IMG/VR virus record: IMGVR_UViG_2778261463_000010
Span: 1-15,679 of that record
Strand: one strand, 5' to 3'
Origin: a virus
Taxonomy: Duplodnaviria; Heunggongvirae; Uroviricota; Caudoviricetes
DNA length: 15,679 nt
This document shows, in pieces, positions 1 through 15,679 of this stretch; the first letter of the stretch is position 1, and the number at the start of each line of letters is the position of its first letter. The position numbers and the translations under genes were made by a program. The notes beneath the pieces were generated by a model, which saw only the letters and a program-made list of their open reading frames with translations, did not search any database and was not told the origin of the DNA.

Positions 1-76
1 CCATTTGATCATATGACAAGATGTGTATCCACCTTAACTTAATGATTTTTACCAAAATCATTAGGGGATTCATCAG
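1..76 (-). mobile_element. IS10 (Tn10-type) outside terminal end; element body lies left of the window
   Basis: Reverse complement of 1-76 reads CTGATGAATCCCCTAATGATTTTGGTAAAAATCATTAAGTTAAGGTGGATACACATCTTGTCATATGATCAAATGG, which matches the recalled IS10 outside end. The chromosomal reading frame resumes at position 77. Confidence 0.8.
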
Positions 77-690
77 TGCTCGGTGTCTTTGTGCTGGCGC
101 TGCTGGGCTGGATTTTCAGTAAGTCTCTGGGGGTTGATGAATCCACCGTGGCAATCGTTGTTATGGCAACCATGCTGCTGCTGGGTATCGTTACCTGGGA
201 AGACGTGGTTAAAAATAAAGGCGGCTGGAATACCTTAATCTGGTACGGCGGTATTATCGGCTTAAGCTCCTTATTATCGAAAGTTAAATTCTTCGAATGG
301 TTAGCTGAAGTCTTTAAAAATAACCTGGCATTTGATGGTCACGGTAACGTTGCTTTCTTCGTTATTATTTTCCTCAGCATTATCGTGCGTTATTTCTTCG
401 CTTCCGGTAGTGCCTATATCGTTGCTATGTTACCGGTATTTGCCATGCTGGCGAACGTCTCCGGCGCACCGTTAATGTTAACCGCGCTGGCACTGTTGTT
501 CTCCAACTCCTATGGCGGCATGGTTACTCACTATGGCGGCGCGGCAGGTCCGGTCATCTTTGGCGTGGGTTATAACGATATTAAATCCTGGTGGTTGGTC
601 GGTGCGGTACTGACGATATTAACCTTCCTGGTGCATATCACCCTCGGCGTGTGGTGGTGGAATATGCTGATCGGCTGGAACATGCTGTAA
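77..690 (+). pseudogene. ybhI: 3' portion (about 204 codons) of ybhI-like anion transporter gene, interrupted by the IS10 end
   Basis: Highly hydrophobic multi-helix ORF ending at 690, directly upstream of ybhJ as in the known attλ neighbourhood. An in-frame stop lies within the IS10 sequence upstream, so the gene is split. Confidence 0.7.
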
Positions 691-815
691 ATATTCTCGT
701 CATACTTCAAGTTGCATGTGCTGCGTCTGCGTTCGCTCACCCCAGTCACTTACTTATGTAAGCTCCTGGGGATTCACTCGCTTGTCGCCTTCCTGCAACT
801 CGAATTATTTAGAGT
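690..815. repeat. ERIC (enterobacterial repetitive intergenic consensus) element
   Basis: Contains ATGTAAGCTCCTGGGGATTCAC (755-776) and the reverse complement of AAGTAAGTGACTGGGGTGAGCG (735-756), the two classical ERIC primer sites, within an imperfect palindrome between ybhI and ybhJ. Confidence 0.75.
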
Positions 816-872
816 ATATCCATTTATTATCTTTCTGCGCACTTCACGGTGCGCAGATATCTGGAGCATTTG

Positions 873-3134
873 ATGATCAAGTTATCTGAAAAAGGCGTGT
901 TTCTCGCCAGTAATAACGAAATAATTGCCGAAGAACATTTCACCGGCGAAATTAAAAAAGAAGAAGCCAAAAAAGGCACTATTGCCTGGTCTATTCTCTC
1001 TTCGCATAATACGTCCGGAAATATGGATAAACTTAAAATTAAGTTTGATTCATTAGCCTCTCACGATATTACCTTTGTTGGTATTGTACAGACCGCTAAA
1101 GCGTCCGGTATGGAACGTTTCCCGCTGCCGTATGTGCTGACCAACTGCCATAACTCACTCTGCGCCGTCGGCGGCACTATTAACGGTGATGACCATGTTT
1201 TTGGTTTATCGGCGGCCCAGCGTTATGGCGGTATTTTTGTGCCTCCGCATATTGCGGTCATCCATCAATATATGCGTGAGATGATGGCAGGCGGCGGCAA
1301 AATGATCCTCGGGTCAGACAGCCACACCCGTTACGGTGCATTAGGGACAATGGCAGTCGGTGAGGGCGGCGGTGAGTTGGTAAAACAGCTGCTTAATGAC
1401 ACCTGGGATATCGACTATCCGGGCGTGGTTGCGGTGCATCTGACCGGAAAACCTGCGCCGTATGTGGGGCCACAGGATGTGGCGCTGGCTATCATTGGCG
1501 CGGTGTTCAAAAACGGTTACGTCAAAAACAAAGTCATGGAGTTCGTTGGACCGGGCGTTAGCGCGCTCTCTACCGATTTCCGTAACAGCGTTGACGTGAT
1601 GACCACTGAAACGACCTGTTTAAGTTCTGTCTGGCAAACCGATGAAGAAGTCCATAACTGGCTGGCGCTGCACGGTCGCGGCCAGGATTACTGCCAGCTT
1701 AACCCTCAACCGATGGCGTACTACGATGGCTGCATCAGCGTTGATTTAAGCGCCATCAAACCAATGATTGCGCTGCCGTTCCACCCGAGCAACGTGTATG
1801 AAATCGACACACTGAACCAGAACCTGACCGACATTCTGCGTGAGATTGAAATTGAGTCCGAACGCGTGGCGCACGGTAAAGCCAAACTCTCGCTGCTGGA
1901 TAAAGTGGAAAATGGTCGCCTGAAAGTGCAGCAGGGGATTATCGCGGGCTGTTCTGGCGGTAACTACGAAAACGTCATCGCGGCGGCGAATGCACTGCGC
2001 GGTCAATCCTGTGGCAATGACACCTTCTCGCTGGCAGTTTACCCGTCATCACAGCCGGTGTTTATGGATCTCGCCAAAAAAGGTGTGGTAGCAGATTTGA
2101 TTGGCGCAGGCGCAATCATCAGAACCGCGTTCTGCGGCCCATGCTTTGGCGCGGGCGATACGCCAATCAACAACGGTTTGAGTATTCGCCACACCACGCG
2201 TAACTTCCCGAACCGCGAAGGCTCTAAGCCAGCTAATGGGCAGATGTCAGCGGTGGCGTTGATGGACGCTCGTTCTATCGCTGCGACTGCGGCAAACGGT
2301 GGCTATTTAACCTCTGCCAGCGAACTTGATTGCTGGGACAACGTGCCGGAGTACGCCTTCGATGTAACGCCGTATAAAAACCGTGTTTATCAGGGCTTTG
2401 TGAAAGGGGCAACTCAGCAACCGCTGATTTACGGGCCGAACATTAAAGACTGGCCGGAATTGGGTGCGCTGACTGACAATATCGTCCTGAAAGTGTGCTC
2501 GAAGATCCTCGACGAAGTGACCACCACCGACGAACTGATTCCTTCCGGTGAAACCTCTTCTTATCGTTCAAATCCGATTGGTCTGGCGGAGTTTACCCTG
2601 TCTCGCCGCGATCCCGGTTATGTTAGCAGAAGTAAAGCGACTGCTGAGCTGGAAAATCAGCGTCTGGCGGGGAATGTCAGCGAGCTGACAGAGGTGTTTG
2701 CGCGCATTAAGCAGATTGCTGGTCAGGAGCATATTGATCCGCTGCAAACTGAAATTGGCAGCATGGTCTATGCGGTGAAACCAGGCGATGGTTCTGCGCG
2801 TGAACAGGCGGCGAGCTGCCAGCGTGTGATTGGCGGTCTGGCGAATATTGCCGAGGAGTACGCGACTAAACGCTATCGTTCTAACGTCATCAACTGGGGG
2901 ATGTTACCGCTGCAAATGGCGGAAGTACCAACCTTTGAAGTGGGGGATTACATTTACATCCCTGGCATTAAAGCGGCGCTGGATAATCCGGGTACGACGT
3001 TTAAAGGTTATGTGATCCATGAAGATGCGCCGGTAACGGAAATTACGCTCTATATGGAAAGTCTGACTGCTGAAGAGCGCGAGATTATCAAGGCGGGTAG
3101 TTTGATTAACTTCAATAAAAACCGTCAGATGTAA
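873..3134 (+). CDS. ybhJ: Aconitase-family protein YbhJ (753 aa)
   Basis: Long ORF with aconitase-like Cys/Gly-rich motifs. ATG at 873 is preceded by GGAG at 863-866. The six-frame track's longer form starts at GTG 849. Confidence 0.88.
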
Positions 3135-3147
3135 AAAGCGCCATGTG

Positions 3148-3352
<205 letters not shown>

Positions 3353-3367
3353 AATAGTTAATTGCTC

Positions 3368-4651
3368 TTACTTCTTCGCCTCTGCAACCACTTTACTACC
3401 CACGCCGCGGTTATTGTATTCCCACATGCGGTTGTAGTTAGTGTCATTCAGATTGCGCTGTATTTCGTCGTTATCATCTACGCTGCCGGTATTACCCGCA
3501 AACGGACGATTAGAGATCACCGCATCGGCCCACGGTTTAGCCGTGTTAAAACCTTCGTTGATGGCGCTATCACGGATCACCACCTGACCGTTGGTATTGG
3601 CATCAACATCCAGCGAGCGGCCCAGTTGCGCCACACCATCACCGAAAGCATTGAAACGGCTGTTTACGGCGAGGAAACCGTAGTAAATGTTGGACAGCGT
3701 AGCCGGTGCAAACACATACGCTTCTTGCTGAGTACGTGAGTTCACCACGCGGAATTCGGTGTTATCGAACACCACTGCGCCGCGACCAGAAACGATATCC
3801 ACATCCCCTTCAATGTAGCTGTTGGTCACCAGCGTACGCGGCTGACGATTTGTTTCCAGACGGTTCTGCACACCGCTGTTGGTGACAAAGAAGGTGTTCT
3901 GACGACCGAGAATGTTAACGTTGTTAATCTGTACCTGGTCACCATCAGTACGCAGTGCCACCGCCGGATGGTTACCTGCATCTACGCTATCGCCCAGCGT
4001 GTTTTCGATGGTCAGATTTTGCAGTTGCAGGCCATTGTTTTGTGACCAGAAGACCGCAGAGCAGAGAACACCGATACTGTCGCTGCGTTTGCTCTGGCAG
4101 CTATCGTACATATACCACGCTGGTTTACCTGGCATATATTTGCCGCGCGGGTTGACGTCGTGACGCCAGTCGGCAGGGCTCATGCCACCATCAAGGGAAA
4201 GCCCAATCTTCACATCAATCGGTTTTTCACCTGTACCGTACAGAGTAATTCCACCCGGAGCGGCAGGGACATATACCGTTCCCTGATACTCACCAGGCAT
4301 CACGGCAATATACTGGCGCTTGTTGGTACGCTTGATAATTGCCGCATCTACCGCCGCCTGAATCGTGGTATGCGTTACACCTTGAGTGCCCGCCGGGTCG
4401 ACAACAAAGTCAGGTTGCGCAGGCAGGGTAATCGGGGAAGGATTCCACGCTGCAGCACCTGGTGTCAGGGATGCAAAATAGTGTTGAGCATCGAAATTCT
4501 GCGCTTCTTTTGCCGACAGAATCGGGCGAGAAGAGGTACCAGGCGCGGTTTGATCAGAAGGACGTTGATCGGGCGGGGTTGAGCTACAGGCGGTCAGCGT
4601 CACGCCAAAAGCCAATGCCAGCGCCAGACGGGAAACTGAAAATGTGTTCAC
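3368..4651 (-). CDS. ybhC: Outer-membrane lipoprotein YbhC (pectinesterase-like, 427 aa)
   Basis: ORF with signal peptide and lipobox LTAC. GTG start preceded by GGAG. Sits immediately chromosomal-side of the att core, as expected for the attλ left flank. Confidence 0.88.
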   Translation of the reverse strand: MNTFSVSRLALALAFGVTLTACSSTPPDQRPSDQTAPGTSSRPILSAKEAQNFDAQHYFASLTPGAAAWNPSPITLPAQPDFVVDPAGTQGVTHTTIQAAVDAAIIKRTNKRQYIAVMPGEYQGTVYVPAAPGGITLYGTGEKPIDVKIGLSLDGGMSPADWRHDVNPRGKYMPGKPAWYMYDSCQSKRSDSIGVLCSAVFWSQNNGLQLQNLTIENTLGDSVDAGNHPAVALRTDGDQVQINNVNILGRQNTFFVTNSGVQNRLETNRQPRTLVTNSYIEGDVDIVSGRGAVVFDNTEFRVVNSRTQQEAYVFAPATLSNIYYGFLAVNSRFNAFGDGVAQLGRSLDVDANTNGQVVIRDSAINEGFNTAKPWADAVISNRPFAGNTGSVDDNDEIQRNLNDTNYNRMWEYNNRGVGSKVVAEAKK

Positions 4652-4689
4652 AGGTTGCTCCGGGCTATGAAATAGAAAAATGAATCCGT

Positions 4690-4784
4690 TGAAGCCTGCT
4701 TTTTATACTAAGTTGGCATTATAAAAAAGCATTGCTTATCAATTTGTTGCAACGAACAGGTCACTATCAGTCAAAATAAAATCA
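4690..4784. other. attL: Prophage attL: att core plus lambda P' arm
   Basis: GCTTTTTATACTAA at 4698-4711 followed by GTTGGCATTATAAAAAAGCATTGCTTATCAATTTGTTGCAACGAACAGGTCACTATCAGTCAAAATAAAATCATTATTTG, which matches the recalled lambda P' arm, running up to the int stop. Confidence 0.9.
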
Positions 4785-5855
4785 TTATTTGATTTCAATT
4801 TTGTCCCACTCCCTGCCTCTGTCATCACGATACTGTGATGCCATGGTGTCCGACTTATGCCCGAGAAGATGTTGAGCAAATTTATCGCTTATCTGCTTCT
4901 CATAGAGTCTTGCAGACAAACTGCGCAACTCGTGAAAGGTTGGCGGATCCCCTTCGAAGGAGAGACCTGATGCTTTTCGTGCGCGCATAAAATACCTTGA
5001 TACTGTGCCGGATGAAAGCGGTTCACGACGAGTAGATGCAATTATGGTTTCTCCGCCAAGAATCTTTTTGCATTTATCAAGTGTTTCCTTCATTGATATC
5101 CCGAGAGCATCAACATGCAATGTTGTTGGGATGGCAATTTTTACGCCTGTTTTGCTTTGCTCGACATAAAGATATCCATCTACGATATCAGACCACTTCA
5201 TTTCGCATAAATCACCAACTCGCTGCCCGGTAACAACAGCCAGTTCCATTGCAAGTCTAAGCCAACATGGTGATGATTCTGCTGCTTGATAAATTTTCAG
5301 GTATTCGTCAGCCGTAAGTCTTGATCTCCTTACCTCTGATTTTGCAGCGCGAGTGGCTGCGACCGGGTTTGTTGTTATATGGCCTTCAGCCATAGCCTCT
5401 CGGAATGCATCGCTCAGTGTTGATCTGATTAACTTGGCTGATGCCGCCTTTCCCTCGTCTATGTATCCATTGAGCATTGCCGCAATTTCTTTTGTGGTGA
5501 TGTCTTCAAGTGGAGCATCAGGCAGACCCCTCCTTATTGCTTTAATTTTGCTCATGTAATTTATGAGTGTCTTCTGCTTGATTCCTCTGCTGGCCAGGAT
5601 TTTTTCGTAGCGATCAAGCCATGAATGTAACGTAACGGAATTATCACTGTTGATTCTCGCTGTCAGAGGCTTGTGTTTGTGTCCTGAAAATAACTCAATG
5701 TTGGCCTGTATAGCTTCAGTGATTGCGATTCGCCTGTCTCGGCCTAATCCAAACTCTTTACCCGTCCTTGGGTCCCTGTAGCAGTAATATCCATTGTTTC
5801 TTATATAAAGGTTAGGGGGTAAATCCCGGCGCTCATGACTTCGCCTTCTTCCCAT
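4785..5855 (-). CDS. int: Lambda-type tyrosine integrase Int (356 aa)
   Basis: Translation MGRRRSHERRDLPPNLYIRNNGYYCYRDPRTGKEF...REWDKIEIK is essentially the recalled lambda Int, with the catalytic C-terminal HxxR...Y region present. Confidence 0.97.
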   Translation of the reverse strand: MGRRRSHERRDLPPNLYIRNNGYYCYRDPRTGKEFGLGRDRRIAITEAIQANIELFSGHKHKPLTARINSDNSVTLHSWLDRYEKILASRGIKQKTLINYMSKIKAIRRGLPDAPLEDITTKEIAAMLNGYIDEGKAASAKLIRSTLSDAFREAMAEGHITTNPVAATRAAKSEVRRSRLTADEYLKIYQAAESSPCWLRLAMELAVVTGQRVGDLCEMKWSDIVDGYLYVEQSKTGVKIAIPTTLHVDALGISMKETLDKCKKILGGETIIASTRREPLSSGTVSRYFMRARKASGLSFEGDPPTFHELRSLSARLYEKQISDKFAQHLLGHKSDTMASQYRDDRGREWDKIEIK

Positions 5856-5949
5856 TTCTGATCCTCTTCAAAAGGCTACCTGTTACTGGTCGATTTAAGT
5901 CAACCTTTACCGCTGATTCGTGGAACAGATATTCTCTTCCATCCTTAAC
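5833..5949 (-). pseudogene. xis: 3' remnant of excisionase gene xis (about the last 38 codons); 5' half replaced
   Basis: Minus strand encodes ...VKDGREYLFHESAVKVDLNRPVTGGLLKRIRNGKKAKS*, overlapping the int start as in lambda. Reading upstream, an in-frame TAG occurs with no start codon, and the sequence diverges from lambda beyond about 5949. Confidence 0.8.
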
Positions 5950-6123
5950 GCAGATCGGATGATTACCGGTTCGCTACCAGGGAAGAACGGGAAGGAAAGG
6001 TGAGCACGAATCTGATTTTCAAGGAGTGTCGCCAGAGTGCCGCGATGAAGCGGATGTTGGCATTTTATCGCGGCAATTTTCAATAGACTATGTACATAAA
6101 AATATCATTTTTTTAATACATGT

Positions 6124-6315
6124 CTAATTATTGGACGAAATTGGTTTTTGCTTTGGTTTAGTTAGCCTAGCAATCAAGCCAGAGGCAATAATGATGATCC
6201 AAGCAATTTGATGCAATGCTACTCCAATATAAGAACCTTTATAGATAATAAAGGCATAGATCGCTAGAAACGAAATAAATATCCATAACGAAAGTTGATA
6301 AATTTTGGCGCGCAT
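6124..6315 (-). CDS. Hypothetical small membrane protein (63 aa, two predicted TM helices, basic C-terminus)
   Basis: ORF MRAKIYQLSLWIFISFLAIYAFIIYKGSYIGVALHQIAWIIIIASGLIARLTKPKQKPISSNN. Two hydrophobic stretches. No clear Shine-Dalgarno. Lies in the AT-rich island, divergent from the lipoprotein operon. Confidence 0.45.
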   Translation of the reverse strand: MRAKIYQLSLWIFISFLAIYAFIIYKGSYIGVALHQIAWIIIIASGLIARLTKPKQKPISSNN

Positions 6316-6571
6316 ATTTAATCCAATCAATCAGAAAGACGAGTAATCATAGAGGTACTATCACCCGGGTAACTATTGCTATTATGAACGGATAGGATAG
6401 AGGCTTCAATAACATATGCATCAAGTATGATGGAATATGTAGGTGAAAATGACTTGTGTCAAATTTGTGGAAATGAGTACCATGTTTCTCTGAAATTGAT
6501 GTCGTTAATGGCTAGTGATAGTGAACTTTTTTACTTTATAATTCCTTTGGTTATAACAATAAGGTAAATTT

Positions 6572-7132
6572 ATGAAGAAGATAATATTATTAGCCATGAT
6601 TATTGGTTCTTTAACAGGTTGCGCTAGTGTGCCACCATTGAATTTTTCAACACCTAACGTGGGAGTTAGCCAGAAAAAAATAGATGCTGAAATTAAGTCA
6701 TTAACGGTATCACTTGCTCGTCCAGATGAGCAGAAAGGGGATATCACTGCTGGTATGGAGGCTATAACTCCAATTTGGCGTGAATCTTTGCAGGAAGCAC
6801 TCGACCGAATGACTATTTTTCGTGATAGTTCACCAAATACGGTTAGCTTAAATGTTAAAGTGTTGGCTCTTGACGTTCCTGCTTTTGGTGTTTCAATGAC
6901 AACTAAAGCAATTGCAAGGTATGAAATAATCAACCGTGCGAATGGTGATATTATATATACGCAGGATATTGAGTCTACCGGTACTGTTCCAGCCAGTTAC
7001 GCATTCTACGGTATTGTTCGAGCACGCGAATCTGTTAATCGCGCGGTGCAAAACAACATAACGCAGTTCTTGCAAGCATTAGAAAGTGTTGATCTTTCTC
7101 GTCCAATGTTTCCTGTTAGGGTAGCTAAATGA
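6572..7132 (+). CDS. Hypothetical lipoprotein (186 aa), first gene of a two-gene operon
   Basis: Signal peptide MKKIILLAMIIGSLTGC with lipobox LTGC. AAGG 6 nt upstream of the ATG. AT-rich codon usage. Stop overlaps the next start (ATGA). Confidence 0.8.
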   Translation: MKKIILLAMIIGSLTGCASVPPLNFSTPNVGVSQKKIDAEIKSLTVSLARPDEQKGDITAGMEAITPIWRESLQEALDRMTIFRDSSPNTVSLNVKVLALDVPAFGVSMTTKAIARYEIINRANGDIIYTQDIESTGTVPASYAFYGIVRARESVNRAVQNNITQFLQALESVDLSRPMFPVRVAK

Positions 7133-7635
7133 AGCGATTATTCGTAATTGCTCCACTCTTAGTGTTGGTTGGATGCGCACAAAATATATCGCCAAATAGT
7201 TATTCTGTTGGCTCTGTGGGCATGGTTAATCGAACTATCGCTGGTACAGTTATTAGTGCTAGGGGGGTTGATATCAGTGGGACTTCCGCGTTAGGCGGGA
7301 CTGCTGGGGCTGCCGTGGGGGCAACCGCTGGTTCTGCGCTTGGTGGGGGAGTTCGTTCTAATATCGTTGGTGCCGTTGGTGGTGCAGTCATTGGTGGTAT
7401 TGCCGGGGCAGCAATCGAATCTTCAGCAACAAAACAAACAGGCATGGAATATGTTGTCGAAACTGAGAATGGGAATTTAATGACCATTGTTCAAGGCAAA
7501 GATCCGTTATTTACTCAAGGAAGTAAGGTCCTTGTTTTATACGGAAACCCTTCTCGCATAATAACAGACCGCGTCACTAACATACCTTTTGATTTTGTAA
7601 AATCAATTCGTAATAATAAAGTCATCGGAGCTTGA
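7129..7635 (+). CDS. SlyB/Pcp-like glycine-zipper outer-membrane lipoprotein (168 aa)
   Basis: Lipobox LVGC. Gly/Ala zipper GTSALGGTAGAAVGATAGSALGGG...GAVGGAVIGGIAGAAI followed by a beta-rich C-terminal segment (NGNLMTIVQGKD...SKVLVLYGNP). This matches the domain order I recall for SlyB. Start overlaps the upstream stop. Confidence 0.8.
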   Translation: MKRLFVIAPLLVLVGCAQNISPNSYSVGSVGMVNRTIAGTVISARGVDISGTSALGGTAGAAVGATAGSALGGGVRSNIVGAVGGAVIGGIAGAAIESSATKQTGMEYVVETENGNLMTIVQGKDPLFTQGSKVLVLYGNPSRIITDRVTNIPFDFVKSIRNNKVIGA

Positions 7636-7770
7636 ACAACTCCGGTGACTTCTGCGCTAAACGGGGACGTTTATGCGCACATACAATCCAAACTCTCTTC
7701 TCCCTTCACAGATGCAGAAATGCACCTGCGATTTTTTGCATCCAGCGTCTGACCTCTGCGGAGGTGAAGC

Positions 7771-8226
7771 GTGAACCTACCACAAGATGGCATCAAACTG
7801 CATCGCGGTAACTTCACCGCTATCGGCCAGCAGATCCAGCCTTATCTGGAGGACGGAAAATGCTTTCGCATGGTGCTTAAACCGTGGCGTGAGAAACGCA
7901 GTCTTTCCCAGAATGCACTCAGCCACATGTGGTACAGCGAAATCAGTGAATACCTCATCAGCAGGGGGAAATCGTTCGCTACCGCAGCATGGGTAAAAGA
8001 TGCTCTCAAACACACATACCTCGGTTATGAAACCAAGGACCTGGTTGATGTCGTAACCGGCGAAATCACTACTATCCAGTCGTTACGCCATACCTCCGAT
8101 CTTGATACCGGAGAGATGTATATCTTCCTGTGTAAGGTTGAAGCCTGGGCGGTGAATATTGGCTGCCACCTGACTATTCCGCAGAGCTGCGAGTTCCAGC
8201 AGCTCCGCGACAAACAGGAGGCGTAA
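7771..8226 (+). CDS. ybcN: NinB-family protein (YbcN-like, 151 aa)
   Basis: GTG start with GGAGGTG upstream. Shares the RSLxQN motif with lambda NinB. Gene order matches DLP12 ybcN-ninE-ybcO-rusA. Confidence 0.85.
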
Positions 8227-8396
8227 TGGCTACACCGCTTATTCGTGTCATGAACGGACACATCTACAGAGTACCAAATCGTCGTAAGCGTAAACCGGAG
8301 CTGAAGCCTTCCGAAATACCAACACTGCTCGGATATACCGCCAGCCTGGTTGATAAAAAATGGTTGCGACTGGCAGCAAGGAGGAGTCATGGCTGA
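8226..8396 (+). CDS. ninE: NinE-family protein (56 aa)
   Basis: ATG overlaps the ybcN stop (TAATG). Basic RRKRKP...WLRL pattern as in lambda NinE. Below the ORF-track length cutoff. Confidence 0.7.
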   Translation: MATPLIRVMNGHIYRVPNRRKRKPELKPSEIPTLLGYTASLVDKKWLRLAARRSHG

Positions 8397-8679
8397 TTTG
8401 AGAAAAGCAGCGCGTGGTCGGGAATGCCAGGTAAGAATCCCTGGCGTATGTAATGGCAACCCTGAAACGTCTGTACTGGCACATATCCGGCTGACTGGAT
8501 TGTGCGGCACCGGTACGAAACCGCCAGACCTGATTGCCACCATTGCATGTTCTGCCTGCCACGACGAAATCGACCGCCGCACACATTTTGTCGATGCTGC
8601 ATATGCAAAAGAATGCGCGCTGGAAGGTATGGCGAGAACACAGGTTATCTGGCTGAAAGAGGGGGTTATTAAGGCGTGA
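8389..8679 (+). CDS. ybcO: YbcO-like protein (DUF1364, putative nuclease, 96 aa)
   Basis: ATG at 8389 preceded by AGGAGG. Cys-rich CxxC...CxxC pattern. Overlaps the ninE stop by 8 nt. Confidence 0.82.
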
Positions 8680-9038
8680 ATACCTACAGCATCACATTAC
8701 CCTGGCCTCCGAGCAATAATCGCTATTACCGCCATAATCGCGGGCGCACACACATCAGCGCAGAAGGGCAGGCATACCGCGATAACGTCACCCGAATCAT
8801 TAAAAACGCAATGCTGGATATCGGCCTGGCTATGCCAGTGAAAATCCGTATTGAGTGCCACATGCCGGATCGCCGTCGCCGTGACCTGGATAATCTGCAA
8901 AAAGCCGCTTTTGACGCACTCACCAAAGCAGGTTTCTGGCTGGATGATGCTCAGGTCGTTGATTACCGCGTTGTGAAGATGCCTGTTACCAAAGGTGGGA
9001 GGCTGGAACTGACCATCACCGAAATGGGGAATGAATGA
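8676..9038 (+). CDS. rusA: Holliday junction resolvase RusA (120 aa)
   Basis: Translation [23 protein letters not shown]...[12 protein letters not shown] matches recalled RusA. GTG start overlaps the ybcO stop (GTGA). Confidence 0.92.
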
Positions 9039-9175
9039 TGTTTGAGTTTAATATGGCAGAACTTCTTCGCCACCGCTGGATGCGCCTGCGCTTATATCGT
9101 TTCCCCAGTTCTGTTTTGACCGATTACCGAATACTGAGGAATTACGCCAAAACCCTGACAGGAGCAGGAGTATGA
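9035..9175 (+). CDS. ylcG: YlcG-like small protein (46 aa)
   Basis: ATG overlaps the rusA stop. Position and size match DLP12 ylcG. Short ORF with weak independent support. Confidence 0.55.
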
Positions 9176-9260
9176 AGTCAGAGATAACAATCAACTAATA
9201 CTGTTTTATTGATTTTTGCTTGTAATTGGCGTTCTGGTCTGATTTTTGTGGAGTAAGTTG

Positions 9261-9644
9261 ATGCGTGATATTCAGATGGTTCTTGAGCGTTGGGGAGCGT
9301 GGGCGGCTAATAATCATGAAGATGTGACCTGGTCGTCCATTGCCGCCGGTTTTAAGGGATTAATTACTTCAAAAGTAAAATCTCGCCCGCAATGTTGTGA
9401 CGATGACGCGATGATCATTTGCGGGTGCATGGCCCGTCTGAAAAAGAACAACAGCGATTTGCACGATTTATTAGTAGATTATTATGTAGTCGGTATGACA
9501 TTCATGTCACTGGCAGGTAAGCATTGCTGCTCTGATGGTTATATCGGGAAAAGGTTACAGAAGGCTGAGGGTATAATTGAAGGGATGTTAATGGCATTAG
9601 ATATCCGGTTAGAGATGGATATCGTTGTTAATAACTCTAATTAA
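9261..9644 (+). CDS. quuD: Late-gene antiterminator Q (QuuD-like, 127 aa)
   Basis: ATG at 9261 with GGAG 9 nt upstream. Cys-rich zinc-binding-like region ([12 protein letters not shown]...HCC). Position immediately upstream of the late region. Confidence 0.85.
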
Positions 9645-9659
9645 TATGCCAATTGTTTA

Positions 9660-9695
9660 CTAAAAATTATTAAAAATGGGGCGTTGAGACGCCCC
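9660..9695 (-). terminator. Intrinsic terminator on the minus strand, downstream of the porin gene
   Basis: Stem GGGGCGT/ACGCCCC (9678-9684 and 9689-9695) with a 4-nt loop, followed on the minus strand by AUUUUUAAUAAUUUUU. Confidence 0.6.
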
Positions 9696-9832
9696 CAAAA
9701 ATAAAGGGTAATATATAACAGAAGGTTTATATAGTTAGAAGCAAGGTTGTGCTCCTAAAGGAAGTGGCTTGAGGGAGCCACTTATATGTTGGGGAGGCAA
9801 AGCCTCCCGCAACATATCTTTTAGTAATCAAA
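9660..9832 (-). ncRNA. ipeX: Candidate IpeX-like small RNA / structured 3' region downstream of the porin gene
   Basis: Three consecutive stable stem-loops (9678-9695, 9762-9783, 9784-9817) in the porin 3' intergenic region. In DLP12 the sRNA IpeX is reported at the 3' end of nmpC. Boundaries not determined. Confidence 0.4.
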
Positions 9833-10915
9833 TTAGAACTGGTAAACCATACCTACAGCAACGATATCATCGGTAGCAACGCCAGATGCTTTCGTGAAAT
9901 CGCTCTTATCAATCAGGTTGATTTTGTAATCAACAAAAGTGGACATATTTTTGTTGAAGTAATAGGTTGCACCTACATCAATATATTCAACCAGGTCCTG
10001 ATCACCCCACGCACCCAAGTCTTTTCCTTTAGATTGCAGGTAAGCAACGGACGGACGCAGACCGAAGTCGAACTGATATTGTGCAACTACTTCGAAGTTT
10101 TGTGCTTTGTTGGCAATATGGTTATTACCAAAAACAGTCATGTTCTGGGTTTCAGAATAGGTGGTAGCCAGATAGATGTTGTTCGCATCATATTTCAGAC
10201 CAGCTGCCCATACTTCAGCATTTTGACCAGATGCATTCAGGCTGTTGTTACCGTAGATAACCTGATTATTAGTGCGGTCAGATTTAGCATAGGTTGCACC
10301 TACACCGAATCCTTCATACTCATAAGTAGTGGAGAAACCGAAACCATCACCATTAGCTTCAGTTACGTCAGTGCGGTCATTTTTACCCTGATACTGAGCA
10401 GCAAAGTTCAGACCATCAACCAGACCAAAGAAGTCATTGTTACGATAAGTTGCAACACCTGTGGTGCGACCAGTCATGAATACATCTGTTTGGGTCCAGG
10501 TATCGCCACCGAATTCTGGCAGAACGTCGGTCCATGCACCAATATCGTATGCTACACCGTAGTTACGGCCATAATCGATGGAGCCGTAGTCACCGAATTT
10601 CAGGCCAGCGAAGGCAAGACGGGTTTTATCTTTGGAGGAACCTTGAGATTCAGCGCGGTTGCCTTTGAATTCATATTCCCACTGACCGAAACCAGTCAGT
10701 TGATCGTTGATTTGGGTTTCACCTTTGAAGCCAAGACGGGCATAAGTAGTATCACCATCATCTGCATCATTAGAGGAGAAGTAGTGCTTAGCATTAACTT
10801 TCCCGTACAGATCCAGCTTGTTACTGTCTTTATTATAAATTTCAGCTGCCTGAGCAGACATCGCCATCAGTACTGATGCAGCTACAGCAGAAATTGCCAC
10901 TGTTAATTTTTTCAT
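9833..10915 (-). CDS. nmpC: Prophage-encoded general porin of the NmpC/Lc/OmpD family (360 aa precursor), apparently intact
   Basis: Signal peptide [23 protein letters not shown], then [16 protein letters not shown]...; Gly/Tyr-rich beta-barrel pattern; C-terminal ...VGMVYQF. The ORF track's longer form starts at 10975. Confidence 0.93.
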
Positions 10916-11341
10916 CGTGAGCCCTTTTTTTGAACTATTATTAAAAAATGATGTCACTGCGCGATAAATATTCATCTAATCAATGTGATTATTTCAAGAT
11001 GTAAGTTTTGGTTTCTCATTTGATTTGTGAAGTAGATCTCTATTTTTATCTGAACTTTTTCTATCGAATCCTATTCATGGCTCTTGGCTGAATAAAAATA
11101 AATCTATTAGCCAATTTATATTAATGGCTGTTATTTATAAGCGCTCTATAATTTGAAGATTCAATTTAAACCAGCTAAAAATAACGCTGGAAATTATTTG
11201 TTGGTTATTTGTTGAGATTTGCTTATGTATTTGTAGTGGTGTTTTCAATACTCGGTAGCATTCTCGCAAATATCATTTAGTGGTTTACGTACGTAAAAAA
11301 TTGGTTATGCTGTTAAGAGTGGTTACTTCGTCACACAGCTT

Positions 11342-11375
11342 AAACCCGCCGTCGAGCGGGTTTTTCCATTTTTTG
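11342..11375 (+). terminator. Intrinsic terminator-like hairpin plus U-tract upstream of the lysis cassette (possible tR'-type site)
   Basis: Stem AAACCCGC/GCGGGTTT with loop CGTCGA, followed by TTTCCATTTTTTG. About 130 nt upstream of the holin start. Confidence 0.55.
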
Positions 11376-11502
11376 AGTCTCGATATTAGCTGATAACCCA
11401 ATACCTGAGTTATTCACTGACTCCGAGTCTGTTACGTTTCTGCTTTTTTGCGATACGTTGTATTCCCTCAATTTACACCCGCTTTGTCTGCGAGGTGGGG
11501 TT

Positions 11503-11718
11503 ATGAAATCCATGGATAAGTTAACAACGGGTGTCGCCTATGGCACCTCAGCAGGTAGTGCCGGTTACTGGTTTTTACAGCTGCTCGATAAAGTCACGCC
11601 CTCACAGTGGGCAGCAATAGGTGTGCTGGGTAGCCTGGTATTTGGCCTGCTGACGTACCTGACAAACCTTTATTTCAAGATTAAAGAAGATAAGCGCAAG
11701 GCTGCGAGAGGTGAATAA
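11503..11718 (+). CDS. essD: Class II holin (P21 S-type pinholin, EssD-like, 71 aa) with dual-start motif
   Basis: Translation [24 protein letters not shown]...[15 protein letters not shown] resembles recalled S21. Met1/Met4 dual start. GAGGTGGGG SD. Confidence 0.88.
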
Positions 11719-12215
11719 TGCCTCCATCATTACGAAAAGCCGTTGCTGCTGCTATTGGTGGCGGAGCAATTGCTATAGCATCAGTGTTAATTACTGGCCC
11801 AAGTGGTAACGATGGTCTGGAAGGTGTCAGCTACGTACCATACAAAGATATCGTTGGCGTATGGACTGTATGTCACGGACACACCGGAAAAGACATCATG
11901 CTCGGTAAAACGTATACCAAAGCAGAATGCAAAGCACTCTTGAATAAAGACCTTGCCACTGTCGCCAGACAAATTAACCCGTACATCAAAGTCGATATAC
12001 CGGAAACAACGCGCGGCGCTCTTTACTCATTCGTTTACAACGTGGGTGCTGGCAATTTCAGAACATCGACGCTTCTTCGCAAAATAAACCAGGGCGATAT
12101 CAAAGGCGCATGTGATCAGCTACGTCGCTGGACATATGCTGGCGGTAAGCAATGGAAAGGTCTCATGACTCGTCGTGAGATTGAGCGTGAAATCTGTTTG
12201 TGGGGTCAGCAATGA
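11718..12215 (+). CDS. rrrD: SAR endolysin (P21 R-type lysozyme, RrrD-like, 165 aa)
   Basis: N-terminal Gly/Ala-rich signal-anchor-release segment [20 protein letters not shown] followed by a T4-lysozyme-like catalytic region. Start overlaps the holin stop (TAATG). Confidence 0.93.
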
Positions 12216-12673
12216 ACAGAGTAACCGCGATTATCTCCGCTCTGGTTATCTGCATCATCGTCTACCTGTCATGGGCTGTTAATCATTACCGTGATAACGC
12301 CATTACCTACAAAGCCCAGCGCGACAAAAATGCCAGAGAACTGAAGCTGGCGAACGCGGCAATTACTGACATGCAGATGCGTCAGCGTGATGTTGCTGCG
12401 CTCGATGCAAAATACACGAAGGAGTTAGCTGATGCGAAAGCTGAAAATGATGCTCTGCGTGATGATGTTGCCGCTGGTCGTCGTCGGTTGCACATCAAAG
12501 CAGTCTGTCAGTCAGTGCGTGAAGCCACCACCGCCTCCGGCGTGGATAATGCAGCCTCCCCCCGACTGGCAGACACCGCTGAACGGGATTATTTCACCCT
12601 CAGAGAGAGGCTGATCACTATGCAAAAACAACTGGAAGGAACCCAGAAGTATATTAATGAGCAGTGCAGATAG
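12212..12673 (+). CDS. rzpD: Spanin inner-membrane subunit Rz (153 aa)
   Basis: N-terminal TM helix plus coiled-coil region. Near-identical to recalled lambda Rz. Start overlaps the endolysin stop. Confidence 0.93.
12432..12614 (+). CDS. rzoD: Spanin outer-membrane lipoprotein Rz1 (60 aa), embedded in Rz in the +1 frame
   Basis: Lipobox VVGC and proline-rich [13 protein letters not shown], entirely within Rz. Confidence 0.85.
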
Positions 12674-12704
12674 AGTTGCCCATATCGATGGGCAACTCAT
12701 GCAA

Positions 12705-12998
12705 TTATTGTGAGCAATACACACGCGCTTCCAGCGGAGTATAAATGCCTAAAGTAATAAAACCGAGCAATCCATTTACGAATGTTTGCTGGGTTTCTGT
12801 TTTAACAACATTTTCTGCGCCGCCACAAATTTTGGCTGCATCGACAGTTTTCTTCTGCCCAATTCCAGAAACGAAGAAATGATGGGTGATGGTTTCCTTT
12901 GGTGCTACTGCTGCCGGTTTGTTTTGAACAGTAAACGTCTGTTGAGCACATCCTGTAATAAGCAGGGCCAGCGCAGTAGCGAGTAGCATTTTTTTCAT
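12705..12998 (-). CDS. bor: Bor lipoprotein (serum-resistance family, 97 aa)
   Basis: Translation MKKMLLATALALLITGC... with lipobox ITGC. Matches recalled lambda Bor. Confidence 0.9.
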   Translation of the reverse strand: MKKMLLATALALLITGCAQQTFTVQNKPAAVAPKETITHHFFVSGIGQKKTVDAAKICGGAENVVKTETQQTFVNGLLGFITLGIYTPLEARVYCSQ

Positions 12999-13288
12999 GG
13001 TGTTATTCCCGATGCTTTTTGAAGTTCGCAGAATCGTATGTGTAGAAAATTAAACAAACCCTAAACAATGAGTTGAAATTTCATATTGTTAATATTTATT
13101 AATGTATGTCAGGTGCGATGAATCGTCATTGTATTCCCGGATTAACTATGTCCACAGCCCTGACGGGGAACTTCTCTGCGGGAGTGTCCGGGAATAATTA
13201 AAAACGATGCACACAGGGTTTAGCGCGTACACGTATTGCATTATGCCAACGCCCCGGTGCTGACACGGAAGAAACCGGACGTTATGAT

Positions 13289-13699
13289 TTAGCGTGGAAA
13301 GATTTGTGTAGTGTTCTGAATGCTCTCAGTAAATAGTAATGAATTATCAAAGGTATAGTAATATCTTTTATGTTCATGGATATTTGTAACCCATCGGAAA
13401 ACTCCTGCTTTAGCAAGATTTTCCCTGTATTGCTGAAATGTGATTTCTCTTGATTTCAACCTATCATAGGACGTTTCTATAAGATGCGTGTTTCTTGAGA
13501 ATTTAACATTTACAACCTTTTTAAGTCCTTTTATTAACACGGTGTTATCGTTTTCTAACACGATGTGAATATTATCTGTGGCTAGATAGTAAATATAATG
13601 TGAGACGTTGTGACGTTTTAGTTCAGAATAAAACAATTCACAGTTTAAATCTTTTCGCACTTGATCGAATATTTCTTTAAAAATGGCAACCTGAGCCAT
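13289..13699 (-). CDS. ybcV: YbcV-like protein (DUF1398, 136 aa)
   Basis: ORF conserved at this position in lambda and DLP12. The shorter start MAQVAIFKE is chosen; the ORF track extends to 13822. Confidence 0.75.
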
Positions 13700-13984
13700 T
13701 GGTAAAACCTTCCATGTGATACGAGGGCGCGTAGTTTGCATTATCGTTTTTATCGTTTCAATCTGGTCTGACCTCTTTGTGTTTTGTTGATGATTTATGT
13801 CAAATATTAGGAATGTTTTCACTTAATAGTATTGGTTGCGTAACAAAGTGCGGTCCTGCTGGCATTCTGGAGGGAAATACAACCGACAGATGTATGTAAG
13901 GCCAACGTGCTCAAATCTTCATACAGAAAGATTTGAAGTAATATTTTAACCGCTAGATGAAGAGCAAGCGCATGGAGCGACAAA

Positions 13985-14191
13985 ATGAATAAAGAACAAT
14001 CTGCTGATGATCCCTCCGTGGATCTGATTCGTGTAAAAAATATGCTTAATAGCACCATTTCTATGAGTTACCCTGATGTTGTAATTGCATGTATAGAACA
14101 TAAGGTGTCTCTGGAAGCATTCAGAGCAATTGAGGCAGCGTTGGTGAAGCACGATAATAATATGAAGGATTATTCCCTGGTGGTTGACTGA
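13985..14191 (+). CDS. ybcW: YbcW-like small protein (68 aa)
   Basis: [24 protein letters not shown]... at the conserved position between ybcV and ylcI. Confidence 0.7.
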
Positions 14192-14355
14192 TCACCATAA
14201 CTGCTAATCATTCAAACTATTTAGCCTGTGACAGAGCCAACACGCAGTCTGTCACTGTCAGGAAAGTGGTAAAACTGCAACTCAATTACTGCAATGCCCT
14301 CGTAATTAAGTGAATTTACAATATCGTCCTGTTCGGAGGGAAGAACGCGGGATGT

Positions 14356-14550
14356 TCATTCTTCATCACTTTTAATTGATGTATATGCTCTCTTTTCTGA
14401 CGTTAGTCTCCGACGGCAGGCTTCAATGACCCAGGCTGAGAAATTCCCGGACCCTTTTTGCTCAAGAGCGATGTTAATTTGTTCAATCATTTGGTTAGGA
14501 AAGCGGATGTTGCGGGTTGTTGTTCTGCGGGTTCTGTTCTTCGTTGACAT
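14356..14550 (-). CDS. ylcI: YlcI-like protein (DUF3950, 64 aa)
   Basis: Basic N-terminus MSTKNRTRRTTTRNIRF. Conserved just upstream of cos in lambda-like genomes. Confidence 0.72.
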   Translation of the reverse strand: MSTKNRTRRTTTRNIRFPNQMIEQINIALEQKGSGNFSAWVIEACRRRLTSEKRAYTSIKSDEE

Positions 14551-14699
14551 GAGGTTGCCCCGTATTCAGTGTCGCTGATTTGTATTGTCTGAAGTTGTTT
14601 TTACGTTAAGTTGATGCAGATCAATTAATACGATACCTGCGTCATAATTGATTATTTGACGTGGTTTGATGGCGTAGATGCACGTTGTGACATGTAGAT

Positions 14700-14830
14700 G
14701 ATAATTATTATCATTTTGCGGGTCCTTTCCGGCATGTGGACCCGTTACGGGGCGTCGACCTCGCGGTTTTTCGCTATTTATGAGATTTTTTGAGGGGGTG
14801 GTTGTTGTTTAATTGTTTGGTATATCTAAT
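14700..14830. other. cos: cos region (cosQ/cosN/cosB); cosN-like site near 14750-14761
   Basis: GGGGCGTCGACCTCGCGGTTTTTCGCTATTTATGA closely resembles the recalled lambda cohesive-end region GGGCGGCGACCTCGCGGGTTTTCGCTATTTATGA. Located about 220 nt upstream of the Nu1-like start. Confidence 0.7.
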
Positions 14831-14977
14831 TGATAAGTAAGGTAAAAATAAAATAAATACAACAACCTTACGGTGTATTTTGATGTCATTAATGTGAAAA
14901 AATTCAATGATATCAAATGGTTTTGTAAAAACACATGGTTGTTGTATCGCTTTTTATCGATGACTTATGGAGAGGAG

Positions 14978-15484
14978 ATGGCCTTTTTATTGAATAAAAG
15001 TGATATGGCCTCCTCCATCGGTATCTCTGTTCAGGCATTTGATAAATGGGGCGTTCCTCCTGTCGAGCGTCGGGGGAGGGAAGTTTTTTATGACGTTAAA
15101 ACTGTACTGGAGATAGATCGCGAGCGGCGACAACACAATCATAGAACACCTGATGACGGGGGCGATCTGGAGGAAAGGCTGCTTCGGGCCAGAGCTGAAC
15201 TGACAGAAGAACAGGCCGTAGCTCAAAAACTTAAAAATCAGGTAACCGAAGGTAAGCTCATCGATTCAGACTTCTGCGTTTTCGCCCTCAGCAAGCTGGC
15301 GATGGCATTGTCCAGTACGCTTGATTCTATTCCGTTATCCATGCAGCGACAGTTCCCGGATTTAACGCCACGTCATCTTGACCATCTGAAAACCCTTATT
15401 GCGAAGGGCGCAAATCAGTGTGCGCGGGCAGGGGATAAATTACCGGATTTGCTGGATGAATATATCAGAGCAACAACTGAATAA
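14978..15484 (+). CDS. nohD: Terminase small subunit (Nu1/NohD-like); start codon uncertain
   Basis: Aligns with lambda Nu1: the segment NKSDMASSIGISVQAFDKW against NKKQLADIFGASIRTIQNW, and similar C-terminus. ATG 14978 has GGAGAGGAG immediately upstream; alternatives are TTG 14939, ATG 14960 or GTG 14873. Confidence 0.8.
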   Translation: MAFLLNKSDMASSIGISVQAFDKWGVPPVERRGREVFYDVKTVLEIDRERRQHNHRTPDDGGDLEERLLRARAELTEEQAVAQKLKNQVTEGKLIDSDFCVFALSKLAMALSSTLDSIPLSMQRQFPDLTPRHLDHLKTLIAKGANQCARAGDKLPDLLDEYIRATTE

Positions 15485-15488
15485 TCTG

Positions 15489-15679
15489 ATGGCTGCCGTT
15501 TCGGTTGCGCTGCAGCCTCTGGTCAGGGTTGTACCGATGACGGCAGTTGAATGGGCTGACCAGTATTATTATCTGCCGAAAGAATCCTCATACGGTGACG
15601 GCGAATGGAAAACGCTGCCGTTCCAGATCGCCATCATGAACAGTATGGGGAATGATCAGGTCCGCACTGTTAATCTGAT
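15489..15679 (+). CDS. A: Terminase large subunit (gpA-like), N-terminal fragment; continues beyond the window
   Basis: Translation MAAVSVALQPLVRVVPMTAVEWADQYYYLPKESSYGDGEWKTLPFQIAIMNSMG resembles the recalled lambda gpA N-terminus (TAVEWADANYYLPKES...). Confidence 0.88.
   Translation, partial: MAAVSVALQPLVRVVPMTAVEWADQYYYLPKESSYGDGEWKTLPFQIAIMNSMGNDQVRTVNL

Follow-up and report, generated by a model that had tools for sequence, protein, structure and literature searches.

The insertion sequence IS10 transposes by a cut-and-paste mechanism in which the bound transposase joins the excised element to a target cut with a 9-bp stagger, and repair leaves two copies of those 9 bp; the terminal repeats of the element are the transposase-binding sites. 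Two target consensus sequences are quoted in PMC4574204, namely NGCTNAGCN, the classical Tn10/IS10 hot-spot consensus (Halling and Kleckner, 1982, as cited in PMC4574204), and the relaxed NRCNNNGYN. Once inserted, IS10 can also activate adjacent genes from its outward-facing promoters (PMC4574204).

The 15,679-nt stretch of DNA analysed here (the window) begins with an end of this element. Positions 1–76 match the outside end of IS10-Right of the R100 Tn10 (L004 10501–10576) at 76 of 76 positions and the outside end of IS10-Left at 72 of 76, the mismatches being at IS10 nt 24, 25, 27, and 47. The segment is read on the minus strand as the terminal 76 bp of an IS10-Right-type (ISVsa5) element, with IS10 nt 76 at window position 1 and IS10 nt 1 at position 76, and its minus-strand reading is CTGATGAATCCCCTAATGATTTTGGTAAAAATCATTAAGTTAAGGTGGATACACATCTTGTCATATGATCAAATGG. 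The two ends of IS10 are labelled by their sequences, the outside end reading CTGATGAATCC or CTGATGAATCCCC and the inside end CTGAGAGATCC or CTGAGAGATCCCC. The 23-bp imperfect inverted repeat terminus of the outside end lies at 54–76 (minus strand) and reads CTGATGAATCCCCTAATGATTTT, which agrees with the inside-end terminus CTGAGAGATCCCCTCATAATTTC at 17 of 23 positions. A plasmid search with positions 1–76 gave E = 9e-32, and a search of 28 Gb of E. coli genomes gave E = 3e-31. Because the 76 bp are found at 100% identity in thousands of plasmids, and the IS10 outside end occupies 6329 places in 1876 of 5426 complete genomes, the match is not due to chance.

Further landmarks of the element are also discernible within the 76 bp. 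Positions 1–31 (plus strand, outward, towards the ybhI remnant) hold the 3' end of the gene for the antisense RNA RNA-OUT (Rfam RF00240; model positions 40–70 of 70, E = 4.4e-5), with a match that falls below the gathering score owing to 5' truncation by the window edge; the full-length RNA-OUT is found at the equivalent place in strain Br_112_kylling (L001 11962–12031, 98.8 bits). RNA-OUT ends at IS10 nt 47, which corresponds to window position 30 (PMC5006887), and its promoter, pOUT, lies outside the window. A GATC Dam site, read directly in the sequence at 7–10 (IS10 nt 67–70), overlaps the −10 region of the transposase promoter pIN (PMC5006887). Judging from the elements of relatives, the transposase gene would sit to the left of the window on the minus strand; IS10 encodes a 402-aa DDE transposase beginning about 108 nt from the outside end, the start codon in Br_112_kylling is 107 nt from that end, and the transposase is also present in contigs L016–L019. 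The position of the window start at the edge of a multicopy insertion sequence explains where the sequence begins.

Directly after the element, the window continues with the 3' part of ybhI, encoding a DASS-family (SLC13-type) anion permease (77–690, plus strand). This part starts with the second base of codon 274 and keeps the reading frame as far as the native stop codon at 690. Positions 77–690 are 100% identical to nt 821–1434 of the intact ybhI of FDAARGOS_1248 (L003) and K-12 MG1655. The first 820 nt of the gene are separated from this part by the insertion sequence, and the full-length ORF of 477 aa is absent from the window, in which only codons 274–477 are present. These results bear out the original prediction that an IS10 outside end at 1–76 interrupts ybhI close to attλ: the end matches IS10-Right in full and carries an RNA-OUT terminus recognized by Rfam, comparison with an uninterrupted ybhI finds the 3' part identical and in frame and the 5' 820 nt displaced, and the attL core lies at 4699–4712, ~4.6 kb downstream of the junction. 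Pfam families PF00939 (Na_sulph_symp) and PF03600 (CitMHS) are on record for the 3' fragment, and RefSeq annotates the equivalent fragment in Br_112_kylling as a pseudogene lacking the N-terminus. The fragment amounts to half of a DASS transporter and is not expected to work, and YbhI function would thereby be lost. The junction itself creates a 204-aa ORF in the ORF list (76–690, plus strand), the GTG start codon of which is made of the last G of IS10 and the TG of the target; this ORF almost certainly does not encode a functional protein, and its exact product is found in 28 blocks of the public contig collection, every one of them at this junction. For annotation, ybhI at this locus is a pseudogene that IS10 has split, and no protein should be called from the 204-aa ORF.

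Truncated forms of ybhI are frequent in public E. coli and Shigella assemblies in general, and many of these may be partial genes at contig edges. A 205-aa C-terminal YbhI fragment starting at the native Met273 is found on 474 contigs (cluster P0137 and others), and clusters of N- and C-terminal YbhI fragments have 367 and 1003 member sequences, respectively.

The 9 bp that follow the element, TGCTCGGTG (77–85), correspond to ybhI nt 821–829, where they occur once in the gene, and represent the right-hand copy of the target duplication. In relatives that share the junction, this proposed target proved to flank the whole element: TGCTCGGTG is present on both sides of a complete IS10 in Br_112_kylling and in contigs L017, L019, L029, and L030. 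Removal of the insertion sequence and one 9-bp copy from the Br_112_kylling sequence restores the 477-codon ybhI, which, together with the presence of TGCTCGGTG on both sides, confirms the target-site duplication. The site fits the relaxed consensus at 4 of its 4 specified positions and the classical consensus at 4 of 6; compared with the latter, the GCT half matches, and the second half-site is GGT instead of AGC.

The junction of the window was searched for in 5,426 complete E. coli genomes and is present in one, that of strain Br_112_kylling (NZ_CP182371). In this genome the element is a solitary 1329-bp IS10 whose inside end (CTGAGAGATCCCC) borders on the ybhI 5' part; it encodes a 402-aa transposase (WP_001339197.1) that R100 IS10-Right encodes as well and that is annotated "IS4-like element ISVsa5 family." In assembly GCA_015620415.1, contig L025 has 77 nt of an R-type outside end adjoining the 3' part of ybhI, and contig L028 has 77 nt of an R-type inside end adjoining the 5' part and the target; as a pair, these contigs therefore represent a solitary IS10-Right in the same orientation as in the window. 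Contigs L023 and L036 of GCA_025262165.1 pair likewise around a solitary element of L-type, and complete solitary L-type copies with the duplication are carried by L017, L019, L029, and L030. The resolvable outside-end cases (L001/L018, complete; L025 with L028 and L023 with L036, paired) are all solitary IS10. Contig L022 (GCA_958429955.1) has a flank identical to that of the window over 3614 nt and is not among the paired assemblies. Exact-pattern scans, one set for the right junction and another for either possible left junction, returned none in genome_contigs or metagenome_contigs.

Based on these relatives, the element in the window is most probably a solitary 1329-bp IS10 and not an end of Tn10, an assignment that we make with good confidence. 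The original prediction had instead raised the prospect of Tn10, with tetracycline resistance just outside the window. In that case the 76 bp would be the outer IS10-Right end of a complete Tn10 in ybhI, with tetD-tetC-tetA(B)-tetR and IS10-Left to the left, and the strain would be tetracycline resistant. The end is indeed of IS10-Right type and faces outward exactly as the right end of Tn10 does, and Tn10 is common, its marker, the tetD–IS10R junction, being fully present in 574 records and in 559 of the 5426 complete genomes. However, these ~574 account for only ~10% of the ~5750 R-type outside ends, so that ~90% do not belong to Tn10, and none of the resolvable cases at this ybhI site is Tn10. 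If the window is a whole short-read contig, its break at the element edge would also hint at a second identical R-type end, which a lone Tn10 does not supply because its ends differ at nt 24, 25, 27, and 47. We thus consider a complete Tn10 unlikely here. As the element is most probably a solitary IS10, no tetracycline-resistance genes are expected beside the window, and a tetracycline-resistance determinant should not be inferred from this IS10 end alone.

A different structure with this IS10 as one boundary, for instance a composite transposon or an integrated plasmid that carries other resistance genes, appears very unlikely. It is brought to mind by one metagenome scaffold (ERZ28662796 scaffold_33; L026 1–10000), in which an R-type IS10 at the same site is followed, beyond its outside end, by an IS91-like fragment, strB, strA, sul2, and genes of a plasmid pilI region where the 5' part of ybhI would be expected; a matching target copy is absent from the resistance-gene side. 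This scaffold may be chimeric across IS10 or may record an IS10-mediated plasmid integration. As a parallel for the window it is offset by the fact that the inside end, not the outside end, abuts the 3' part of ybhI, by a flank from a different lineage (99.3% identity), and by the possibility that a metagenome scaffold is chimeric across a repeat; the resolvable isolate assemblies are all simple insertions. Misassembly of the window itself, with a repeat end misjoined to a ybhI that is intact in the organism, is scarcely credible: the window does extend only 76 bp into a multicopy repeat, about the length of a typical k-mer overlap, but the switch from repeat to ybhI coincides exactly with the end of IS10 and with 9 bp that conform to the target consensus of the element, and a closed genome as well as many independent assemblies have the identical junction with the duplication.

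The insertion could in principle also be man-made, if a Tn10 or mini-Tn10 marker had been introduced close to attλ during strain engineering. K-12 mapping collections include Tn10 insertions near attλ and bio (e.g., zbi-29::Tn10 in CAG18493), and the window and MG1655 have just 4 differences across the 4.6 kb of positions 77–4715. Against such a construct, attλ in the window is occupied by a cryptic lambdoid prophage that is absent from MG1655 and common to ~19 natural isolates, and the flank is nearer to natural isolates, including FDAARGOS_1248, several NCTC strains, and MS 124-1 (2 differences over the 5.9 kb of 77–5949), than to K-12. The identical junction is also present in poultry, human, and metagenome assemblies. 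Mini-Tn10 derivatives retain only the outer 70 bp of IS10-Right, to which a marker cassette is joined; here native IS10 sequence runs past 70 bp to nt 76, a weak test that involves 6 extra bases only. Among the papers covered by a full-text search, none links ybhI with Tn10 or IS10. The suggestion that the insertion was laboratory-made therefore did not hold up well against the prophage-bearing, natural-isolate context and the IS10 match to nt 76: laboratory origin is unlikely, and an engineered Tn10 or mini-Tn10 marker in particular is highly improbable. Positions 77–14790 are 99.9% identical to the ~19 natural isolates, in which attλ holds the same cryptic prophage and ybhI is intact, and the sequence is best explained by a natural, K-12-like host of phylogroup-A type. 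Taken as a whole, a natural solitary IS10 insertion in ybhI is a highly likely account of the locus.

The prophage occupies 4716–14790. The match to K-12 stops at the attL core (4699–4712), where the cryptic lambdoid prophage starts; the core reads GCTTTTTATACTAA, with five T residues vs. six in K-12 attB and in related junctions (L003, L001), and the short T-run is either a real 1-nt core deletion, which would add to the locking-in of the prophage, or a homopolymer sequencing error. The λ-type int gene (4785–5855) is intact, and xis has lost part of its length to a deletion of 4.25 kb, as judged against the closest relatives (L003 8875–13123), with the joint at ~5946–5949. These relatives already lack the immunity and replication regions and have exo fused to a ren fragment. 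What remains of the prophage is a DLP12-like nin/Q/porin/lysis/bor late region, including a porin gene (9833–10975, minus strand; 380-aa ORF), the equivalent of which in relatives is annotated as "porin OmpC" and is nmpC-like. Past 14790, the window departs from its 99.9%-identical relatives and enters a cos-side region, with a small terminase and the start of a large terminase of another lambdoid type; the small terminase Nu1 (14978–15484, 168 aa) is a protein found in 2286 blocks of the collection. Prophages that other strains carry at other loci share 99% identity with positions 14790–15679, and the change at 14790 reflects either a mosaic joint or the repeat that ends the sequence.

In the contigs retrieved with the junction ORF, IS10 occurs in four arrangements at the same 9 bp. 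The 3' part of ybhI is adjoined by an R-type outside end in the window, L018, L022, and L025; by an L-type outside end in L023 and L024; by an R-type inside end in L016, L020, and L021; and by an L-type inside end in L017 and L019. All four possible left-junction fusion proteins, in which the 5' part of ybhI runs into an inside or outside end of R- or L-type, are likewise on record; they were found by exact look-up, and a homology search with the constructed left-junction protein gave no truncated representative. The ybhI–ybhJ flanks of these contigs share 97.5–100% identity with the window; at least eight haplotype-and-configuration classes can be distinguished among them, in six of which the first flank SNPs lie 14–95 nt from the junction. 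Spread of one insertion by recombination cannot explain these flanks and arrangements, and the insertions are thus independent. From these sequence comparisons, ybhI nt 821–829 emerges as a recurrent, preferred natural target of IS10 that has been hit independently in many strains. Since TGCTCGGTG is such a target, a shared IS10 at this site in ybhI is no evidence of common descent in strain typing. Beyond target preference, the recurrence may reflect selection for loss of YbhI or for pOUT-driven expression of ybhJ in IS10-rich E. coli of livestock and humans; the at least eight independent hits, in both orientations, and the frequent other truncations of ybhI speak for such selection, which we nevertheless regard as unlikely.

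PEC199 (NZ_CM168016; L002 ~4749–6077) is a second complete genome with IS10 in ybhI; the element has the orientation seen in the window but lies at another site, 554 bp upstream of the one hit there. Metagenome assembly ERZ27258594 combines a right junction with an R-type inside end (L021) and a left junction with an L-type outside end (L031), which suggests either a hybrid IS10, with an L-type outer part and an R-type inner part, or a mixture of strains.

Downstream of the ybhI remnant lies ybhJ (873–3134, plus strand), a gene for an aconitase-family hydratase whose position follows from its annotated counterparts in L003 and L005. Its expression may be affected by polarity or by outward IS10 transcription, and read-through from pOUT into the ybhI remnant and ybhJ is possible; a simple promoter scan of window positions 1–900 found nothing relevant. 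The ybhJ–ybhC intergenic region (3158–3352) contains repeated REP-type elements, with two overlapping copies of ~100 nt that are 92% identical, and a match to Rfam naRNA4 at 3229–3299 that barely exceeds the gathering score.

We propose that an active IS10-Right-type element inserted into codons 274–277 of ybhI in a natural E. coli chromosome. Staggered cuts at TGCTCGGTG would have been followed by duplication of the site during repair, the window retaining the right-hand copy and the outside end, and the transposase gene and second target copy would lie just to the left of the window. The insertion would thus have split the 477-codon ybhI, leaving a 5' part of 276 codons, extended by a short tail that the insertion sequence encodes, and a non-working 3' part, and outward transcription from pOUT, past the end of the RNA-OUT gene at about window position 30–31, may enter both of the reading frames downstream. 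Overall, the insertion represents ordinary, already-known biology in a dispensable gene, most likely involving a lone insertion sequence with no resistance cargo.

Compared with described systems, the locus shares with Tn10 (R100, 9147 bp) the same IS10-Right outside end at its right end; unlike Tn10, the window, which ends 76 bp into the element, shows no tet genes and no IS10-Left, and the elements at this site elsewhere are solitary. The agreement with IS10-Right (ISVsa5, IS4 family) is complete over the 76 of 1329 bp that are visible, comprising an identical, outward-facing terminus with the RNA-OUT end and Dam site, and the 9-bp target fits the known preference. As at classical Tn10/IS10 hot spots (NGCTNAGCN), insertion has occurred repeatedly at one exact 9-bp site and in either orientation, with a perfect GCT half-site; in contrast to those hot spots, the ybhI site has GGT in place of AGC and fits the relaxed consensus only, and it was recognized in natural genomes rather than in selection experiments. 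The non-consensus target upstream of cat in pSU8 provides a further parallel, in that all independent insertions were at one nucleotide, in a sequence that fits NRCNNNGYN and not the classical consensus, although that target was found under chloramphenicol selection for IS10 promoter activity (PMC4574204), whereas the ybhI site is not known to be under any selection. Site preference, insertion in both orientations, and non-consensus hot spots are established features of IS10 behaviour, to which recurrence at ybhI is a small addition.
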